Shown here one piece after another: positions 3,415 to 59,854 of a DNA stretch of 64,000 nt. Each line of letters begins with the position of its first letter. The stretch's first letter is position 1. Below the pieces are notes generated by a model, which worked only from the letters and a program-made list of their open reading frames with translations, was not told the origin of the DNA and did no database searches. Origin of the DNA: Candidatus Woesearchaeota archaeon (lineage in GTDB: Archaea; Nanobdellota; Nanobdellia; SCGC-AAA011-G17; UBA489). Where the stretch lies: the NCBI GenBank assembly GCA_016845225.1, contig JAERTB010000005.1:9644-73643 (forward strand), written 5' to 3'. Position numbers and translations under genes: made by a program.

Positions 3415-3999
3415 ATGAAAGTACTATTATTTACAGATGTTCATGCAGAACAAGAACCATTAGATCAAATTGTTGAAAAAAGCAAAGATTGTGATGTAAT
3501 GGTATGTTGTGGAGATGCAAGCATCTTTGGATCAGGACTGAAAAAAACAATCAAGAGGTTAGAAGACTGTAATAAACAATTATTCATCACTCACGGAAAC
3601 CATGAAATGATTAGTGAAATGAAAGAAGTTTGTGTTAAGGACCATGTTCGATTTCTTCATAAAGAAGCAGTAGAGTTTGGAGGAATTACATTTGCTGCTT
3701 ATGGCGGAGGAGGATTTAGTGAAATTGATAAAAGATTAGAAAAATGGGCAGCTAAATTAAAAATAAATTCAGATAAAAAATTAGTTCTTTTTACACATGC
3801 GCCACCATATAATACTAAATTAGATAAACTTCCCCACCTTGGACACAGAGGATCTAAAAGTGTTAGAAAGGCAATAGAATGTTTAAACCCTGATTTATTT
3901 GCTTCAGGCCATTTTCATGAAACTTTTTTTAAACAAGAAAAAATTGGCAAAACTCTTATGATTAATCCCGGAAATGATGGCACATTAATTGATCTTTAA
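3415..3999 (+). CDS. Calcineurin-like metallophosphoesterase
   Basis: 194 aa. Metallophosphatase motifs DVH, GD, GNHE and GHFH in canonical order. Confidence 0.75.
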   Translation: MKVLLFTDVHAEQEPLDQIVEKSKDCDVMVCCGDASIFGSGLKKTIKRLEDCNKQLFITHGNHEMISEMKEVCVKDHVRFLHKEAVEFGGITFAAYGGGGFSEIDKRLEKWAAKLKINSDKKLVLFTHAPPYNTKLDKLPHLGHRGSKSVRKAIECLNPDLFASGHFHETFFKQEKIGKTLMINPGNDGTLIDL

Positions 4000-4510: not shown

Positions 4511-5266
4511 TCACAAAAAAGTTCGTTGATAATTAAGAAAAATATTCTTTTTTACTTCTTCTTTATCTAACTTTTTTAGTTCTGCAATTTTATTTATTGT
4601 ATCAATTACAAAAGAAGGTTCACTTCTATCTTTGTCTTTTGGTGCTAAAAAAGGTGCATCTGTTTCTGTTAAAAGATTGCTAATGGCTGTCTTTAATACT
4701 GCACCTTGAAAGTGTTCGCTTTTATCGATATTTGCAGGTATGGAGATTAACCACCCGTTTTCTTCTATTTTTTTAATTAAACTAAACTTACCAGAAAAAC
4801 AATGAAATACTACTTTCTTTATCTTTAATTCTTCTAATATTTCAATACATTCTCTTTCTGCTTTTCTTGAATGAATTACAAAGGGTTTATTTAAATCTTT
4901 TAATGTTGTTAATGTTTTTTTGAAAAAGGTTACTTGTTTTTCTTGAAGTTCTTTATCTTTTGTTAGGTGAAAATCCAAACCAATTTCTCCAATTCCTAAA
5001 ATCTTATCTTTGTTTTCTTTAATAAATTTAAGTTCGGCATCTAATTCCTTTTCGGACATTTTTTCAATTGTTGTAGGATAAATTCCCAAAGTTGCGTTTA
5101 GAATTTCATCTTTCTTTGTTAATTCCAAAACCTTAACATTAGACTCATGATCGGTTCCTGCATTGATTATTGAAATCATTCCTGCAGATTTCGCTCTAGC
5201 AATTACTTCATCCAAATCAGATTCAAACTTTGGATAATACAAATGAGTGTGCACATCTACAAACAT
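4511..5266 (-). CDS. tatD: TatD-family metal-dependent hydrolase/DNase
   Basis: 251 aa. N-terminal MFVDVHTHL and TIM-barrel TatD layout. Confidence 0.85.
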   Translation of the reverse strand: MFVDVHTHLYYPKFESDLDEVIARAKSAGMISIINAGTDHESNVKVLELTKKDEILNATLGIYPTTIEKMSEKELDAELKFIKENKDKILGIGEIGLDFHLTKDKELQEKQVTFFKKTLTTLKDLNKPFVIHSRKAERECIEILEELKIKKVVFHCFSGKFSLIKKIEENGWLISIPANIDKSEHFQGAVLKTAISNLLTETDAPFLAPKDKDRSEPSFVIDTINKIAELKKLDKEEVKKNIFLNYQRTFL

Positions 5267-12723: not shown

Positions 12724-13710
12724 CTAAAGAAATCCTTTTTCTAAAAGATCGTCCCAAGTTATGTCACCACAAAGAACTGCAAATTCTCTAGCTGTTAATA
12801 GAGGTTTGTCAAACATACCTGCAGCGTCAATTGCTATTCTAGGACAAGCTAACTCTACAAATGCCTCAATATCATAAAGGTTTACTAATTTATCATTAGT
12901 TATTTCTGACATTGAAATCATAACATATTCTTTGTTTATTTTCTTTAATTTTTCTTTTACGAATTCAAATGAACCAAACTTTTGTCCTAATTTTGTGCCA
13001 ATAATAATTCCAATCTTCTTTGCTTGTTTTGCTTTTTCAATTGCTGCAAATCTTTGTTTGATTATTTTATCTTTGAACTCATCCATGTTATGAATTTCCT
13101 CATTGAATGGATCAACTAGGATTACTGGTTTGTTTATGCTCATTGCAACGCCTAATGCGTGGAATTTATTTGCAACTATTAATACTGCATCAACTTTGTC
13201 TGAAATTAATTTAAATGAACTGTATTCGCAACCAAGTACTTGTCCATCATAGAATGCATTTCCTTTTGCATCTGGAACATTTACTTCCAATCCTGTTTCT
13301 TCAATTAGCTTTTTTACTTGAGGAATTTGATGAATATGTTGAACTGAAGTTGCTAGTGCTATTTTCTTGAAAGATTCTAACTTATGTAGAGATTTTTTTA
13401 CAATTTTAGTAATGTCTGATTCGTACCTGGCTTCTAGATATAATATCGGAAAGTCTGCATCTGTGAATTTAGCATGGCCATAAATAATAATCATATCACA
13501 ACCAAGAGTTTTAGCTTCATTTACTGCCACATCACATGCCCCCCATAAAGGTTCGCCTGAAAGAATTACCTCTGAAGATGTCTTTTCTCTGATTAGATTA
13601 GAAATCCTAAGCCCTTCTCGTTTTATGCCTTCAGGGAGCTGTAATAAGACCCTCTTGGGCTTTTTTTGGTTTAGTTCTTCTATTAACTTGTTTTCTTCAA
13701 ATGTGTACAT
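12724..13710 (-). CDS. dph2: Diphthamide synthesis 2-(3-amino-3-carboxypropyl)histidine synthase Dph2
   Basis: 328 aa. Conserved blocks RVLLQLPEG, GACDVAVNEAKTLGCD, ATSVQHIHQ, GQVLGCEYS, ACPRIAIDAA. Confidence 0.85.
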   Translation of the reverse strand: MYTFEENKLIEELNQKKPKRVLLQLPEGIKREGLRISNLIREKTSSEVILSGEPLWGACDVAVNEAKTLGCDMIIIYGHAKFTDADFPILYLEARYESDITKIVKKSLHKLESFKKIALATSVQHIHQIPQVKKLIEETGLEVNVPDAKGNAFYDGQVLGCEYSSFKLISDKVDAVLIVANKFHALGVAMSINKPVILVDPFNEEIHNMDEFKDKIIKQRFAAIEKAKQAKKIGIIIGTKLGQKFGSFEFVKEKLKKINKEYVMISMSEITNDKLVNLYDIEAFVELACPRIAIDAAGMFDKPLLTAREFAVLCGDITWDDLLEKGFL

Positions 13711-13762: not shown

Positions 13763-15310
13763 ATGCATTGTGTTATGCCTAACAATCCAGTCAAGGTCGA
13801 TAAGAAAAAAAGAGAAGAGTTTCTTACTAACTTGAGTTCTTTTATGCAAAGCAAGAGCTTTATTTGGGGACCCTTTCCTGAAATTTATGGCGGTGTTGCA
13901 GGATTCTATTCTTATGGGCCGATGGGAAAACTACTGAAAGATAAAGTAGAAAATATTGTTAGGAGAACTTTTCAAAGCAATGGATTCTGGGAAGTAGAGT
14001 GCCCAATTGTTTTACCCGATGTTGTTTGGAAAGCTTCAGGACATTTAGATACTTTTGAAGATAGAATAATTAATTGTAGTAAATGTAAATCAGTTTTTAG
14101 AGCTGATAAATTAATTGAAGAAAATCACGATGTTAGTGCAGATGCCTATTCTGATCAAGAATTGATTGATTTTATTACTAAAGAAAAAATAAAATGTCCA
14201 TCATGTAAGGGCGAGTTTGTTTATGATATCCAAACACAAAGTTTAATGATGAAAACTAAAGTTGCAGGTATTGAAAGTTCATTGAGACCAGAAACTGCAA
14301 CCGTAACTTATATTCCATTTAAGAGATACTATGAATTCTTTAGAAGAAAATTGCCTGTCGGTGTTTTCCAAATTGGAAAAGCATTTAGAAATGAGATTAG
14401 TCCTAGACAGAGTGTTTTGAGAGGAAGAGAGTTTACTCAGGCAGAAGGTCAATTATTTATTGATCCTTCTAAGAAAAATGATTGGGAAAAATATGATTTG
14501 ATTAAGAAAGAAAAACTACCTATTTGGGATTACAAAGCACAGAAAGGAGAAAAACCCCATGTTTCAATGAGCGTTGCTGATGGAATAAAAAAGAAGTTGT
14601 TCCAATCTAAGGCCTATGCATGGTGTGTTTGGCTAGCATATAAACAATTTATCAATATGGGCATACCTGAAGATAGAATTAGAATAAGACAGCACCATCC
14701 TGATGAAAAAGCGTTCTATGCTGATGATGCATGGGATATTGAAATAAATTTGAATAGTTTTGGTTGGACAGAAGTTTGTGGAATACATGATAGAACAGAT
14801 TATGATTTAATTCAACATTCTAAATTTTCAAAGCAAAACTTAACTGCAAAAGATGATAAGAATAAAGATATTACTCCCCATGTTTTAGAAATTGCATTTG
14901 GAATTGATAGGCCTGTTTTTGCATTGTTGGATTTATTCTATTCTAAAATGGGAAAGAGTGAAGGAAAAACAATGTTTAAATTACCATACCATTTAGCTCC
15001 AGTTGATGTTGCAGTGTTCCCTCTAATGAAGAAAGAAGGAATGCCTGAAAAAGCTAATGAGGTTAAAGTTCAATTAGAAAGTGACTTTGTTGTGGAGTTT
15101 GATCAATCTGGAAGTATTGGAAAAAGATATTTGCGTGCAGCTGAAAGTGGAACCGCTTATTGTATTACTGTTGATCATGATAGTCTGAAAGATGACACTG
15201 TTACTTTAAGAGATAGAGATTCTGAAGAACAAAAAAGAGTTAAGATTTCTGAATTAAATAATTTAATTAGAGAACTTCTAAAAGGAACTGTTAGTTTCGA
15301 ATCTATTTAG
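13763..15310 (+). CDS. glyS: Glycyl-tRNA synthetase (archaeal/eukaryotic class II type)
   Basis: FIWGPFPEIYGGVAGFYSYGPMG and class-II motifs. Start moved to the ATG at 13763 because the upstream ORF extension overlaps dph2 on the opposite strand. Confidence 0.9.
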   Translation: MHCVMPNNPVKVDKKKREEFLTNLSSFMQSKSFIWGPFPEIYGGVAGFYSYGPMGKLLKDKVENIVRRTFQSNGFWEVECPIVLPDVVWKASGHLDTFEDRIINCSKCKSVFRADKLIEENHDVSADAYSDQELIDFITKEKIKCPSCKGEFVYDIQTQSLMMKTKVAGIESSLRPETATVTYIPFKRYYEFFRRKLPVGVFQIGKAFRNEISPRQSVLRGREFTQAEGQLFIDPSKKNDWEKYDLIKKEKLPIWDYKAQKGEKPHVSMSVADGIKKKLFQSKAYAWCVWLAYKQFINMGIPEDRIRIRQHHPDEKAFYADDAWDIEINLNSFGWTEVCGIHDRTDYDLIQHSKFSKQNLTAKDDKNKDITPHVLEIAFGIDRPVFALLDLFYSKMGKSEGKTMFKLPYHLAPVDVAVFPLMKKEGMPEKANEVKVQLESDFVVEFDQSGSIGKRYLRAAESGTAYCITVDHDSLKDDTVTLRDRDSEEQKRVKISELNNLIRELLKGTVSFESI

Positions 15311-15323
15311 CATTTACCGTACT
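15301..15323 (+). repeat. Copy 2 of the 23-nt exact repeat (tatttagcatttaccgtacttac) spanning the GlyRS stop codon
   Basis: Identical to 3108-3130. Lies 50 bp upstream of the LAGLIDADG endonuclease gene. Confidence 0.8.
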
Positions 15324-15372
15324 TACTCCCTGCTGGAGAATTCTTTTTTAAGTAGTTTAAATTTTATAGGTT

Positions 15373-16137
15373 ATGGCATTATTAACACAAATTAAGAAAG
15401 AACAGTTGTGCAATTATATTTCTAAAGGAATTTCCTTAAATCAGATTAGCTCTAAATTAGGAATTCCTAAGTCTACTGCATATTATTACTATCGAAAGCT
15501 AAAATATAAAAAATATAAAAAACCTGAGTACTCCATTAAGTTTTCAGAAATAGAGGGAGAAATTGTGGGAATTTTTGCTGGAGATGGTAGCCAGTATCAC
15601 TACAAGAAAAATGGAAATTACACAACCACTATCCACTTTGGAAATGTTATTGGTTATATCTCCCATGTAAGAAAATTGTACAACTCTTTTTTTGGAAAAT
15701 CTTGGAATTTGTGGAGAGAAAGAACAAAAGAAGGATTTATACGTCATAGGTTGAGGGCATATAACAAAGAGATATTTAATTTTTTTTACAATTATCTTAA
15801 TTATGATAGTACCCATAAATATGATACTTGTGAAGTTAAATCGATTAATTTTCCAGAAGAATTTAAAATTGGATTTTTGAGAGGATTTTTTGATACAGAT
15901 GGGCACCTTAGTACTTCAAGCAATAGACTGAGAGCATTTTATTATACTACTTCAAAAAAACTTGCAACTCAGATGCAGATATTTTTTAATGATCTGAATA
16001 TTAAAACTATAATTTGGCAAGAGCAACGAAAAGATAAAAAGTGTAAAGATTTATTTATTTTAAGAGTGGCAGAGAAAGAAGTGAATAATTTTTTAAATAA
16101 AATTAGACCCTATAGGGCTAATAAGTTGGGCCGATAG
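15373..16137 (+). CDS. Free-standing LAGLIDADG homing endonuclease with N-terminal HTH
   Basis: 254 aa. Two LAGLIDADG motifs (GIFAGDGS and GFFDTDGH). N-terminal HTH-like ISKGISLNQISSKLGIPKSTAYYY. Stop codon TAG lies inside the tRNA-Ala 5' region. Confidence 0.8.
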   Translation: MALLTQIKKEQLCNYISKGISLNQISSKLGIPKSTAYYYYRKLKYKKYKKPEYSIKFSEIEGEIVGIFAGDGSQYHYKKNGNYTTTIHFGNVIGYISHVRKLYNSFFGKSWNLWRERTKEGFIRHRLRAYNKEIFNFFYNYLNYDSTHKYDTCEVKSINFPEEFKIGFLRGFFDTDGHLSTSSNRLRAFYYTTSKKLATQMQIFFNDLNIKTIIWQEQRKDKKCKDLFILRVAEKEVNNFLNKIRPYRANKLGR

Positions 16138-16201
16138 TTCAGTCCGGTAGAACGTGCGGCTGGCAGTCGCAATGCCTCGGGTTCAAATCCCGATCGGTCC
16201 A
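16128..16201 (+). tRNA. tRNA-Ala (anticodon GGC)
   Basis: Manual fold. Acceptor GGGCCGA/TCGGTCC with G3:U70 Ala identity pair, D-arm GTTC-AGTCCGGTA-GAAC, anticodon loop CTGGCAG, T-arm TCGGG-TTCAAAT-CCCGA. 74 nt. Confidence 0.9.
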
Positions 16202-16268
16202 CATTTAGTTATTATTGGGAAGTAGTTAAAATAAAAAGATTTATAAGTTTTGTATTATAAGTTTACTT

Positions 16269-16766
16269 ATGAAATATCAAAAAATTTTGAAAAATCTTAG
16301 TGAGAGTGATTCAAAGTATTTAGTAGTTGGAGGAATGGCATTACTTTTTAGTGGATATAGGCGTTTAACTATGGATCTGGACATCTTAGCAGATTTAAAA
16401 ACTGAAAATCTTGAAAAAATTGTTAAAGTTATGGACGATAATGGATATATTCCAAGAGTTCCTGTCAATGCAAAAGATATTCTTGATGAATCTAAAAGGC
16501 TAGAACGGTTTGAAGAAAAAGGAATGAAAGCATTTACTTATGTACACCCAGAAGACCCTTTGTCTAGTGTAGATTTATTAATATTTAATCCAATTTCTTT
16601 TGAAAATGCTTATGAAAATAAAAGAGAATTGCTTATTGAAAATACTCCTGTGTATTTTGCAAGTATTGATGACTTAATATCTATGAAAAAAGTTGCAGGT
16701 AGAACTAAAGATTTATATGATATAAAGATGTTAGAGATTATAAAGGAAAGAGCAGAAGATGAATAA
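16269..16766 (+). CDS. Nucleotidyltransferase-fold protein (pol-beta superfamily; AbiEii/MNT-like)
   Basis: 165 aa. VGGMALLFSGYRRLTMDLDIL resembles the hG[GS]xA..R.T.DxD NTase motif. Confidence 0.5.
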   Translation: MKYQKILKNLSESDSKYLVVGGMALLFSGYRRLTMDLDILADLKTENLEKIVKVMDDNGYIPRVPVNAKDILDESKRLERFEEKGMKAFTYVHPEDPLSSVDLLIFNPISFENAYENKRELLIENTPVYFASIDDLISMKKVAGRTKDLYDIKMLEIIKERAEDE

Positions 16767-16989
16767 AAGAAAAATATTAGAAGACAAATTATCTGAAGAC
16801 TATGAACTTAGTCTTGGCGAGAAAGTAGATGCCTCATATATCCTGGATTGGGTTCAAGAAACTAACAGATTCTTATATTCTGTAATGGATCAGAAAACCA
16901 AAGATGTTATTTATGAAACTGATAAAATAATGAATCAGAAAGCAACAAAAGAAGATATAAAACTTATTCTTGGAAGATATGAAATTTAA
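16759..16989 (+). CDS. Hypothetical protein, possible partner of the upstream nucleotidyltransferase
   Basis: 76 aa. Start overlaps the NTase gene by 8 nt. No recognisable motif. Confidence 0.3.
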   Translation: MNKRKILEDKLSEDYELSLGEKVDASYILDWVQETNRFLYSVMDQKTKDVIYETDKIMNQKATKEDIKLILGRYEI

Positions 16990-17020
16990 TTAAATTTTAT
17001 CTTATCGTAAGGTTATTATA

Positions 17021-17296
17021 GTGCTGATTCTAGGTATTTGTATGGGAAGAAAAGCAAAGAGCAGAAGAGTCACTATGCAAAAAAGAAAGCGTATGTCTGC
17101 TGTTAAAGGAAAGTTCAGAGAACAGAAAAAGGAAAGAGCAGCGAAAGCTAAAAAAATTGCATTGTCAGGAGCTGCAAAAAAAGAAAGGAGAAAGGTTTAC
17201 AAGAAAGTTAGACCTAAAGTAGATAGAAGTACCAAAAAGAGTTTTTTGAAAAAGATGAGAGAGAAAGCAAAGACTTGGGGACTTATAGATGAGTGA
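17021..17296 (+). CDS. Lysine/arginine-rich basic small protein
   Basis: 91 aa, more than 40% K/R. Overlaps the HIT gene start by 8 nt. Confidence 0.35.
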   Translation: MLILGICMGRKAKSRRVTMQKRKRMSAVKGKFREQKKERAAKAKKIALSGAAKKERRKVYKKVRPKVDRSTKKSFLKKMREKAKTWGLIDE

Positions 17297-17717: not shown

Positions 17718-17764
17718 AGTCTCAAAGAAACTCTTTTAAACGCAGTTCTAAAGATTATTTATGC

Positions 17765-59515: not shown

Positions 59516-59581
59516 TTAACAATTAATAAGTTTTGAATCGATTTATAAGATTTTCTAGCGTCTAAATTATTGATTAATATG

Positions 59582-59654: not shown

Positions 59655-59854
59655 AATAGTAAAAGATTCAAATTAGTTTGTTTAAAAGATTTTCCACAAG
59701 ACTTATATCTTTTCTAGGGCATTAAATAATCGTGATAGGGATGATATTTGGAGGAATTTTTGGGGTTGTTCCTGAAAATTTTGGAAGTTTTCAGATTTTG
59801 TTTGGATTTTTGATTTTATTATTTGGTTTGCTTATTAATTCTTGGAAAAATTAA

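Follow-up and report, generated by a model that had tools for sequence, protein, structure and literature searches.

A free-standing LAGLIDADG endonuclease gene that borrows its stop codon from tRNA-Ala, and an apparently DPANN-wide family of tRNA-associated cassettes

How can an endonuclease gene come to end inside a tRNA gene without the help of an intron or an intein? Homing endonucleases are thought to need one or the other in order to enter conserved genes harmlessly, and free-standing homing endonuclease genes of the phage type avoid genes. The question is raised by a 64,000-nucleotide stretch of DNA from a Candidatus Woesearchaeota archaeon (GenBank assembly GCA_016845225.1, contig JAERTB010000005.1, positions 9,644 to 73,643; the whole stretch is called the window here, and positions are counted from its first nucleotide), in which an open reading frame (ORF) for a helix-turn-helix (HTH) LAGLIDADG homing endonuclease, hereafter the homing endonuclease gene (HEG), runs into the 5' end of a tRNA-Ala(GGC) gene. 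The answer that we find reasonably probable is that this is a free-standing LAGLIDADG cassette seated at the 5' boundary of tRNA-Ala(GGC), and that it belongs to a DPANN-wide family using tRNA genes as landing sites. The following features define the locus.

13766..15310, + strand: glycine--tRNA ligase (glyRS) gene, the left border of the insertion (TIGR00389, orthologues)
15373..16137, + strand: HTH-LAGLIDADG homing endonuclease ORF, ATG start, 254 amino acids (ORF list, Pfam, homologues, fold)
16128..16202, + strand: tRNA-Ala(GGC), intact, with G3:U70 and no encoded CCA (ARAGORN, Rfam, sequence reading)
16128..16137, + strand: overlap of ORF and tRNA, 10 nucleotides, with codons GGC CGA TAG read from tRNA positions 2-10

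It is U8-A9-G10 of the tRNA that closes the ORF, which lacks a stop codon of its own. Its end reads ...aag ttG GGC CGA TAG..., the last three codons including the stop being drawn from tRNA positions 1-10 and the TAG (16135-16137) falling on positions 8-10. The tRNA gene was called at 16128..16202 by ARAGORN and matches the Rfam tRNA model over 16128..16201 with 62.1 bits against a gathering score of 29; its acceptor stem reads G1-C72, G2-C71, G3-U70, C4-G69, C5-G68, G6-C67 and A7-U66. On the other side, the reading frame of glyRS (TIGR00389, 495 bits with a cut-off of 243) is closed by a stop of its own at 15308-15310, and the HEG is therefore neither an intein nor borne by an intron. A preliminary description of this DNA had reported a 254-residue ORF with two LAGLIDADG motifs lying outside any intron or intein, a TAG stop at tRNA positions 8-10 with a 10-nucleotide overlap, and an intact tRNA with G3:U70, and all of this is borne out: the motifs are IVGIFAGDGS (residues 64-73) and KIGFLRGFFDTDG (residues 165-177), and the intron or intein reading was discarded in view of the complete tRNA, the separate stop of glyRS and an Rfam search that finds only tRNAs here and no intron family. 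The 64-kb window contains no second copy of the HEG. This arrangement is not chance, since the protein has 94 full-length homologues, the catalytic residues D71 and D176 are invariant in an alignment of 32 homologues, and the same ORF-into-tRNA layout recurs throughout the family.

Relatives that lack the HEG bear on whether it arrived at this site, and show where exactly its borders lie. A metagenome scan with the glyRS protein gave 23 loci (L-numbers denote the related genomic loci or contigs compared with the window), and the comparison defines one further feature.

15311..16127, + strand: inserted cassette (promoter and HEG), 817 nucleotides, absent from empty alleles (blastn against L086, junction sequences)

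Six related contigs (L081, L082, L083, L085, L086 and L087) have a glyRS/tRNA-Ala junction with no endonuclease gene, in the order glyRS, tRNA-Ala(GGC), orf91, HIT and tRNA-Met. In five of them (L081, at 2147-2149, L082, L083, L085 and L087) the final G of the glyRS stop TAG is at the same time G1 of tRNA-Ala, and in L086 stop and G1 are separated by one nucleotide; the L086-type junction reads ...GAATCTGTTTAAT followed directly by GGGCCGGTGGTCTAACC..., and the L081-type ...GGTAGTCTATA followed directly by GGGCCGATAGTTCAG.... L086, which comes from a marine assembly, is the closest relative, with about 90-92% nucleotide identity to the window over 12 kb including both flanks. Flank identity is uniform at about 90% up to 15309 and resumes at 17001, and homology in blastn ends at 15309 and restarts inside the tRNA. 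In the glyRS tree, the HEG-bearing window is sister to HEG-less L086 and HEG-bearing L001 is sister to HEG-less L082, with both pairs nested among HEG-less lineages. A second empty/occupied pair exists in another upstream context, glyRS-MFS-tRNA in L084 and glyRS-MFS-HEG-tRNA in L106 (with the major facilitator superfamily, MFS, gene on the minus strand in both), and its right edge again lies exactly at tRNA G1. The six empty junctions and this pair amount to a presence/absence polymorphism at one precise site: the cassette is inserted exactly at the junction of glyRS stop and tRNA G1, and empty alleles exist. The preliminary description had suggested that an endonuclease gene invaded the leader of the tRNA and had proposed comparing this spacer in relatives. 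With HEG-less junctions in six contigs, a precise 817-nucleotide insert and an ORF that is intact and conserved, the invasion half of that reading stands and is supported by the sequences; the leader half does not, as the glyRS stop of empty alleles lies one nucleotide from G1 or overlaps it.

The association with tRNA genes extends far beyond this locus. While a word-indexed search gave the 94 full-length relatives, an exhaustive search, with clusters formed at 50% identity, gave 158 of them at E<=1e-10 and 352 at E<=1e-3, and almost all of these proteins have about 250 amino acids and keep the HTH. In databases the relatives bear generic names ('LAGLIDADG family homing endonuclease') or are called hypothetical. 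Eighty genomic loci were fetched from Woese-, Nano-, Iain-, Micr-, Aenigm- and Nanohaloarchaeota. The ORF stop lies at most 60 nucleotides from a tRNA gene in 62 of 78 family loci, and mostly inside the tRNA (in five loci the tRNA was recovered by Rfam where ARAGORN had none); a random point in the window, with its 7 tRNAs in 64 kb, is that close about 2% of the time. What had first been described as an unusual arrangement is instead the norm of a large DPANN family. In the subfamily of the window (at least 34% identity), every assignable tRNA is a tRNA-Ala in sense orientation, most with GGC and a few with CGC anticodons, many of them with introns. The overlaps of ORF and tRNA cluster at 10-11, 14-15, 21 and 23 nucleotides, and the stop is supplied, according to frame, by tRNA U8-A9-R10 or by a TAG in the D-loop; for this reason the C-termini of the family read GR, GPVV, GPVVQW or GNSAR before the stop, and G253 appears 'nearly invariant'. 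Among more distant subfamilies (27-33% identity), some run in sense into tRNA-Gly(CCC), and others run antisense into the 3' ends of tRNA-Gly(GCC/TCC), tRNA-Asp or tRNA-Pro, with tails such as ...APAGIRISE that are the translated reverse complement of the T arm. A pair of paralogues may also share an assembly while sitting at different tRNAs, as L039 and L073 do in one case and L013 and L046 in another. Within the clade of the window the upstream neighbour varies (glyRS, MFS, DUF4352) and the tRNA is constant, also in L106, L109 and L111, which marks the tRNA as the landmark.

Family-wide abutment to tRNA genes is thus observed directly, and the family appears to be a large, DPANN-wide and hitherto undescribed set of tRNA-associated free-standing LAGLIDADG cassettes; a literature search found no description of this HEG family, of the ORF-into-tRNA rule or of a promoter embedded in such an ORF. 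Isotypes of Pro, Thr, Phe, Cys and Leu that ARAGORN gave for intron-bearing tRNAs (L003, L012, L024 and L031-L033) were rejected as intron artefacts; read by eye, all six tRNAs start with GGGC, five of the six end with GGTCCA (L024 with GGGCCA), and their loops carry GGC or CGC. Variants of the usual architecture also occur. L021 (3965-4609) and L030 (3956-4597) encode HTH-less forms of 213-214 amino acids that match from residues 54-57, and L051 (41-594) is frameshifted, most other copies being intact. In L028 (4001-5485) the tRNA-Ala (4743-4814) offers no in-frame stop and the ORF continues into a HAD-like gene to a length of 494 amino acids, a fusion that is likely an annotation trap.

Is the product still a nuclease? 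The relevant segments of the ORF are these.

15388..15504, + strand: N-terminal three-helix HTH (residues 6-44), then a Lys-rich linker (AlphaFold2 helices 6-17, 22-29 and 33-44; weak Pfam HTH)
15547..15591, + strand: LAGLIDADG helix 1 (residues 59-73), which ends in invariant D71 (alignment, AlphaFold2)
15856..15903, + strand: LAGLIDADG helix 2 (residues 162-177), which ends in invariant D176 (alignment, AlphaFold2)

Pfam LAGLIDADG_3 matches residues 163-244 with E=8.6e-14 (52 bits against a cut-off of 22.5), and Pfam matches to the N-terminal HTH are weak (E 0.005-0.03), residues 6-44 forming a three-helix bundle in the AlphaFold2 model. This model, built from 32 homologues with a mean predicted local distance difference test score (pLDDT) of 93.1, shows the HTH bundle, the Lys-rich linker and two alpha-beta-beta-alpha-beta-beta-alpha halves, which is the order of the LAGLIDADG fold, pseudo-dimeric in enzymes that act as monomers. 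In a Foldseek search the top fold match in the PDB was I-DmoI (E=8e-11, target-normalised template modelling score 0.75-0.79); I-DmoI, I-SceI, PI-SceI and I-Tsp061I all had a probability of 1.00, and WhiA ranked lower (8dy9_I, E=1.7e-7). A PDB search by sequence gave nothing at E<=1; the fold search alone was informative. NCBIfam gave only weak sub-threshold matches to intein-containing proteins, PADLOC gave nothing meaningful for the HEG, and a search of IMG/VR gave two weak matches of 23-24% identity and nothing else, which does not back a viral origin. Both D71 (in IVGIFAGDG) and D176 (in FLRGFFDTDG) are invariant in the alignment of 32 homologues. Because of the predicted fold and these two residues, the protein appears to be a competent monomeric nuclease of the LAGLIDADG type that has a further DNA-binding module. 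Like I-DmoI, which is encoded in a 23S rRNA intron of Desulfurococcus mobilis, it is an archaeal single chain with two LAGLIDADG helices that each end in an acidic residue; unlike I-DmoI, to which it is about 17% identical and which is intron-encoded and has no HTH, it is free-standing, carries a tethered N-terminal HTH and adjoins a tRNA gene.

A cassette placed between glyRS and the tRNA raises the question of how the tRNA is transcribed, and three candidate promoter elements, described here as a transcription factor B recognition element with TATA box (BRE/TATA) or as a TATA-like element, bear on it.

15276..15283, + strand: TTCTAAAA in the 3' end of glyRS, 27 nucleotides before the glyRS stop
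15338..15354, + strand: the HEG's own BRE/TATA-like promoter, GAATTCTTTTTTAAGTA, conserved with L001
16083..16099, + strand: BRE/TATA-like element for the tRNA inside the ORF, GAATAATTTTTTAAATA, codons N-N-F-L-N-K

The element within the ORF is identical at 14 of 17 positions to the promoter-like element of the HEG, and its TTTTAAAT ends 29 nucleotides before G1 of tRNA-Ala; the other tRNAs of the window have GAAAATC-TTWTAAAY, ending 22-25 nucleotides before +1. In archaeal promoters generally, an A/T-rich TATA box stands about 24-30 nucleotides upstream of the transcription start, with a purine-rich BRE in front of it. Co-transcription of HEG and tRNA, which the preliminary description had thought possible, would not be required, as the last 45 nucleotides of the ORF hold this BRE/TATA-like promoter at about the right distance. 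Across the loci in which the ORF runs in sense into the tRNA, conserved F-(L/I)-(N/K) codons spell TTTTTAAA or TTTATAAA. In 21 of 36 such loci, ORFs of 41-48% GC among them, the strict 8-mer TT[AT][AT]AA[AG]N precedes the tRNA by 23-33 nucleotides; its background rate is 0.0034 per nucleotide. The aligned F codon is TTT in 31 of 34 cases against 66% elsewhere in the same genes (p=8e-4), and the aligned L/I codon is TTA or ATA in 24 of 33 cases against 34% elsewhere (p=1e-5). The skew holds after de-replication to 27 sequences of less than 55% identity (p=0.007 and 3e-5), and at the F and L/I positions of the antisense subfamilies it does not occur. In L016 and L018 the motif is gone from this codon position, and a TATA stands at another place with the right spacing. 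Dual coding, in which the last ~45 nucleotides of the ORF would carry the promoter of the tRNA, is supported statistically by the sequence and spacing of the element and by this codon usage.

The element in glyRS suggests what was there before. Empty alleles have TTATAAAA, TTATTAGT or TTCTAAAA at the same glyRS position, 26-28 nucleotides before tRNA G1, and 15276-15283 is a candidate for the original tRNA promoter of the empty allele, now facing the cassette; it could drive the HEG. The HEG's own TATA ends about 20 nucleotides before the ATG, so that the HEG mRNA is probably leaderless. In the window, tRNA-Met, tRNA-Ile and tRNA-Asn share a promoter (at 17734-17764, 59516-59548 and 59655-59687), GAAA(A/C)TC-TTWTAAAY, that ends 23-25 nucleotides before the mature 5' end, which implies very short or absent tRNA leaders.

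Many family members that are ~30-45% identical to the window protein are preceded by a structured 5' leader of about 135 nucleotides, which the window copy does not have. It was seen in L007 (3850-4003), L012 (3848-4003), L017 (3851-4003), L021 (3812-3967 and 1377-1530) and L027 (3022-3170), and further in L037, L041, L048, L050 and L070. Its parts are a long hairpin (AAAAAGAGAACACGCAAAACTGC ... GCAGTTTCGCTTAACGTTCTCTTTTT) topped by an apical stem and another hairpin in which the Shine-Dalgarno sequence GGAGGTG is sequestered; RNAalifold predicted 41 pairs, 16 of them with compensatory changes. Upstream of it, the three copies examined in L017 and L021 have CACTGGACA-N11-14-TATTTAAA, and Rfam found only tRNAs at the leader loci L037, L048 and L070. 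The leader may act as a brake on translation, or be a mobile promoter-leader module that these members share.

If the site is broken recurrently, the adjoining tRNA gene would be expected to change hands. Between window and L086, tRNA-Met and tRNA-Pro are 100% identical and tRNA-Ala is 73% identical, and the differences include the compensating pair A7:T66 against G7:C66, which means that the whole tRNA-Ala gene differs. In a comparison of eight to nine relatives the glyRS tree is matched by tRNA-Met but not by tRNA-Ala; L081 and L085, for instance, are 99% identical in tRNA-Ala, 79% in tRNA-Met and 75% in glyRS. This incongruence suggests an exchange of tRNA-Ala alleles between lineages, which recurrent breaks at the site would lead one to expect, and anomalous tRNA-Ala allele turnover is supported statistically. 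A reading of the 73% identity as a gain of the HEG by the window together with a co-converted tRNA was given up when L086 was found to carry the outlier allele. The tRNA-Ala(GGC) alleles of L081-L087, L001 and the window fall into about three types that are incongruent with host phylogeny, and an 'AGTCYGG' type of D-loop occurs in all five HEG-bearing alleles of the clade, a number too small to test.

Some relatives, furthermore, carry an orphan copy of the tRNA-Ala 5' end upstream of the endonuclease gene: 18 nucleotides, exact, in L017 (3781-3798 against 4754-4771), 20 nucleotides, exact, in L021 (3680-3699 against 4596-4615) and about 27 of 30 in L027 (2945-2971 against 3911-3937). These three lie 220-285 nucleotides upstream of the endonuclease ATG and downstream of a candidate native TATA, and weaker cases are found in L006, L007, L009 and L106. 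The orphans look like displaced 5' ends of invaded tRNA genes, and such duplications would mean that the tRNA was broken and rejoined within the third nearest its 5' end and received a new 5' segment from the element. The break points of the orphans fall at 18, about 21 and about 28 nucleotides. Two likenesses were not retained. One seen by eye in the spacer of the window (CCG-TA-TT-A-TCC...GG-AGAA) is no better than shuffles (p=0.40), with the same outcome for L001, L109 and L111, and the remnant 'GGGCTTGTAGTT' of L106 is not significant as a free local alignment; the latter is suggestive by place alone, lying 20 nucleotides after the retained TATA, where L084 starts its tRNA.

We suggest the following course of events. 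Expression of the enzyme would be driven by the short promoter of the HEG, by the displaced one in the 3' end of glyRS, or by both. Homing endonucleases of the LAGLIDADG type make site-specific double-strand cuts in long targets of about 20 bp. By fold and by analogy, its I-DmoI-like monomeric core with the tethered HTH would recognise and cut the 5' part of a HEG-less tRNA-Ala gene, and the HTH may add affinity, as from genome to genome the site is conserved on its tRNA side only. Repair of the break from a HEG-bearing allele would then copy the cassette together with adjacent tRNA sequence, a step that is supported by the empty and occupied alleles, by the departure of tRNA-Ala from the host tree and by the orphan 5' fragments of relatives. 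The tRNA would stay expressed through the BRE/TATA element in the last ~45 nucleotides of the ORF, with its conserved F-(L/I)-(N/K) codons, for which the support is statistical, and the ORF itself is closed by U8-A9-G10. Should the HEG mRNA extend through the tRNA, cleavage by RNase P at G1 would take the stop codon off the message and limit expression.

Several observations weigh against this account. Cutting and target are taken from fold and analogy, and the proposal leaves the self-immunity of the HEG-bearing allele unexplained. The embedded TATA of the window lies 4-6 nucleotides further from its tRNA than do the promoters of the other tRNAs of the window, and the TATA-like elements in glyRS of empty alleles imply that embedded promoters may be general to these compact genomes and not an adaptation of the HEG. 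L086 may have lost the HEG and its tRNA by replacement, its tRNA-Ala being an outlier allele. No orphan tRNA fragment in the 62-nucleotide spacer of the window stands out from shuffles (p=0.40). The nearest homologue of the HEG is 59-60% identical, which gives no sign of recent transfer. Nor is there evidence of recent horizontal transfer between contexts, the HEG regions of L001, L106 and L109 being 71-74% identical in nucleotides and their flanks 80-83%. Finally, in several DPANN phyla the HEG stands beside the same tRNA and most copies are intact, a pattern that long vertical persistence under selection would also give.

What else could have produced this locus? One candidate is a hot spot in which the HEG has no active part, and here a second insertion has to be taken into account.

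16209..16999, + strand: second, separate insertion relative to L086, L081 and L001, with a nucleotidyltransferase and a 76-residue ORF (Pfam, blastn, relatives)

It begins 6-10 nucleotides downstream of tRNA-Ala and consists of a DUF6036/AbiEii-like nucleotidyltransferase (16269-16766, 165 amino acids; Pfam E=1e-7 and 6e-5, PADLOC AbiEii E=8e-5) and an overlapping 76-residue ORF (16759-16989), which together resemble a toxin-antitoxin pair. HEG-bearing L001, L106, L109 and L111 lack this block, and for this reason we take it as an event separate from the HEG cassette. Both sides of the window tRNA-Ala are insertion hot spots. The HEG might accordingly be an inactive relic or passenger, the whole block of HEG, tRNA-Ala and nucleotidyltransferase pair (15311-16999) having been swapped in by general recombination or by another element. 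Insertions relative to L086 on both flanks of the tRNA would fit this, as would the MFS and DUF4352 genes inserted beside the tRNA in relatives and a right boundary of the diverged tract that cannot be placed, since T66, which pairs with A7, shows that the whole tRNA differs. We nevertheless regard it as unlikely: the four HEG-bearing loci without the nucleotidyltransferase pair, the intact ORF with conserved catalytic residues and the absence of an integrase and of a tRNA-derived direct repeat in the window all speak against it, and tRNA abutment throughout the family needs a specific cause. An integrative element as such was also rejected, as neither an integrase gene in the neighbourhood nor a tRNA-derived repeat within 15250-17100 was found. 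The MFS gene is another sign of rearrangement at this tRNA: it flanks tRNA-Ala on opposite sides in two relatives, in L084 (6534-7733, - strand) antisense between glyRS and tRNA and in L085 (6634-7848, + strand) in sense downstream. As to the left neighbour, glyRS as listed mechanically begins at 13625 and overlaps the divergent diphthamide-synthesis gene (12724-13710, - strand), but orthologues of 511 amino acids indicate that its true start is the ATG at 13766.

Domestication is the next alternative, and we judge it quite improbable. The gene would be a host factor resembling WhiA, the bacterial LAGLIDADG and HTH transcription factor, or a nuclease with a cellular role at the tRNA-Ala locus, inherited vertically and repeatedly lost without being mobile. 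Its presence beside tRNA-Ala across Woese-, Nano-, Iain-, Micr- and Aenigmarchaeota, the full length of most copies with their HTH and the age of the glyRS-HEG-tRNA-HIT synteny are in its favour, and WhiA, which combines a LAGLIDADG double domain with an HTH, is among the fold matches. WhiA, however, has its HTH at the C-terminus, has lost the catalytic residues and is conserved in all members of its clade, whereas here the HTH is N-terminal, both Asp residues are invariant and the distribution on the glyRS tree is patchy. We rejected a domesticated regulator of the WhiA type on the catalytic Asp residues kept in 32 homologues and on this patchiness. Close relatives without the gene have a seamless junction, distant subfamilies sit at other tRNAs in either orientation, and two paralogues stand at different tRNAs in one assembly, all of which disfavour a vertically inherited host protein more generally. 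It is highly improbable that the ORF is or was part of an RNA-level tRNA element (a bulge-helix-bulge or group I intron, a split tRNA or a leader) removed by RNA processing. In favour of such an element, the orphan fragments upstream of some members resemble 5' exons, introns occur in many of the neighbouring tRNA-Ala genes, and introns are the classical home of genes for archaeal LAGLIDADG enzymes. Against it, the tRNA that follows the ORF runs complete from G1 to A73, an Rfam search gives no intron family, the window shows no detectable orphan, and the overlap is with the mature 5' end of the tRNA and not with an intron position.

A mobile cassette landing at tRNA genes can be set beside several known systems. 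In the mitochondria of Allomyces, the free-standing GIY-YIG endonuclease ORF at atp6 reportedly supplies a replacement end for the host gene, so that, as in the window family, an insertion would be made harmless without splicing by supplying the displaced part of a gene; such elements are said to supply a protein-coding 3' end, whereas what the window family would supply is a promoter, to which some relatives would add the 5' segment of a tRNA. The intronless homing of seg and mob genes in T-even phages is similar in that a HEG lies between conserved genes, empty and occupied alleles exist and flanks are co-converted, but those free-standing HEGs rely on target polymorphism in a neighbouring protein gene, whereas the constant neighbour here is a tRNA gene to which the ORF is physically fused. 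Islands and viruses with a tyrosine integrase and a partial tRNA copy also use a tRNA gene as a conserved landing site, and in L017, L021 and L027, as in these islands, a duplicated tRNA segment flanks the insert and an intact tRNA is kept; the window family differs in that it has no integrase, that the duplicated part is the 5' end of the tRNA and not the 3' end, and that the window has no repeat. By fold the HEG is of the I-DmoI type, and by lifestyle its closest analogue is SegB of phage T4, a free-standing GIY-YIG homing endonuclease in a tRNA gene cluster (PMC2330249). The 27-bp site of SegB is anchored on an 11-bp conserved tRNA motif (T-psi-C), the rest being degenerate, and neighbouring tRNA markers are co-inherited (PMC2330249). 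Like the window HEG, SegB is a free-standing HEG among tRNA genes; unlike it, SegB belongs to another nuclease family and to a phage, and it is not known to overlap a tRNA or to contain an embedded tRNA promoter.

The more interesting result lies at the level of the family, which appears to consist of DPANN-wide tRNA-gene-associated cassettes that carry a tRNA promoter with them. For annotation it poses a practical problem, as its ORFs run into tRNAs and one of them (L028) is fused through its tRNA. For homing, the family suggests a third strategy besides the intron or intein and the avoidance of genes, namely a site at the boundary of a tRNA gene, a stop codon borrowed from the tRNA and a new promoter provided from within the ORF. 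If these enzymes really cut tRNA genes, they would explain the anomalous turnover of tRNA-Ala alleles, would offer natural LAGLIDADG specificities for near-universal sequences, and would lend concrete substance to the long-standing notion that the architecture of archaeal tRNA genes is shaped by mobile elements that target them. More tentatively, and at somewhat less than even chances in our estimate, a large guild of free-standing HTH-LAGLIDADG elements in DPANN archaea may home into tRNA genes, being made harmless without intron or intein by the promoter within the ORF and, in some lineages, also by a tRNA 5' segment that leaves the old one behind as an orphan. Such elements would thereby drive horizontal replacement of tRNA alleles, and could be one selective force behind the intron-rich and disrupted tRNA genes of archaea.

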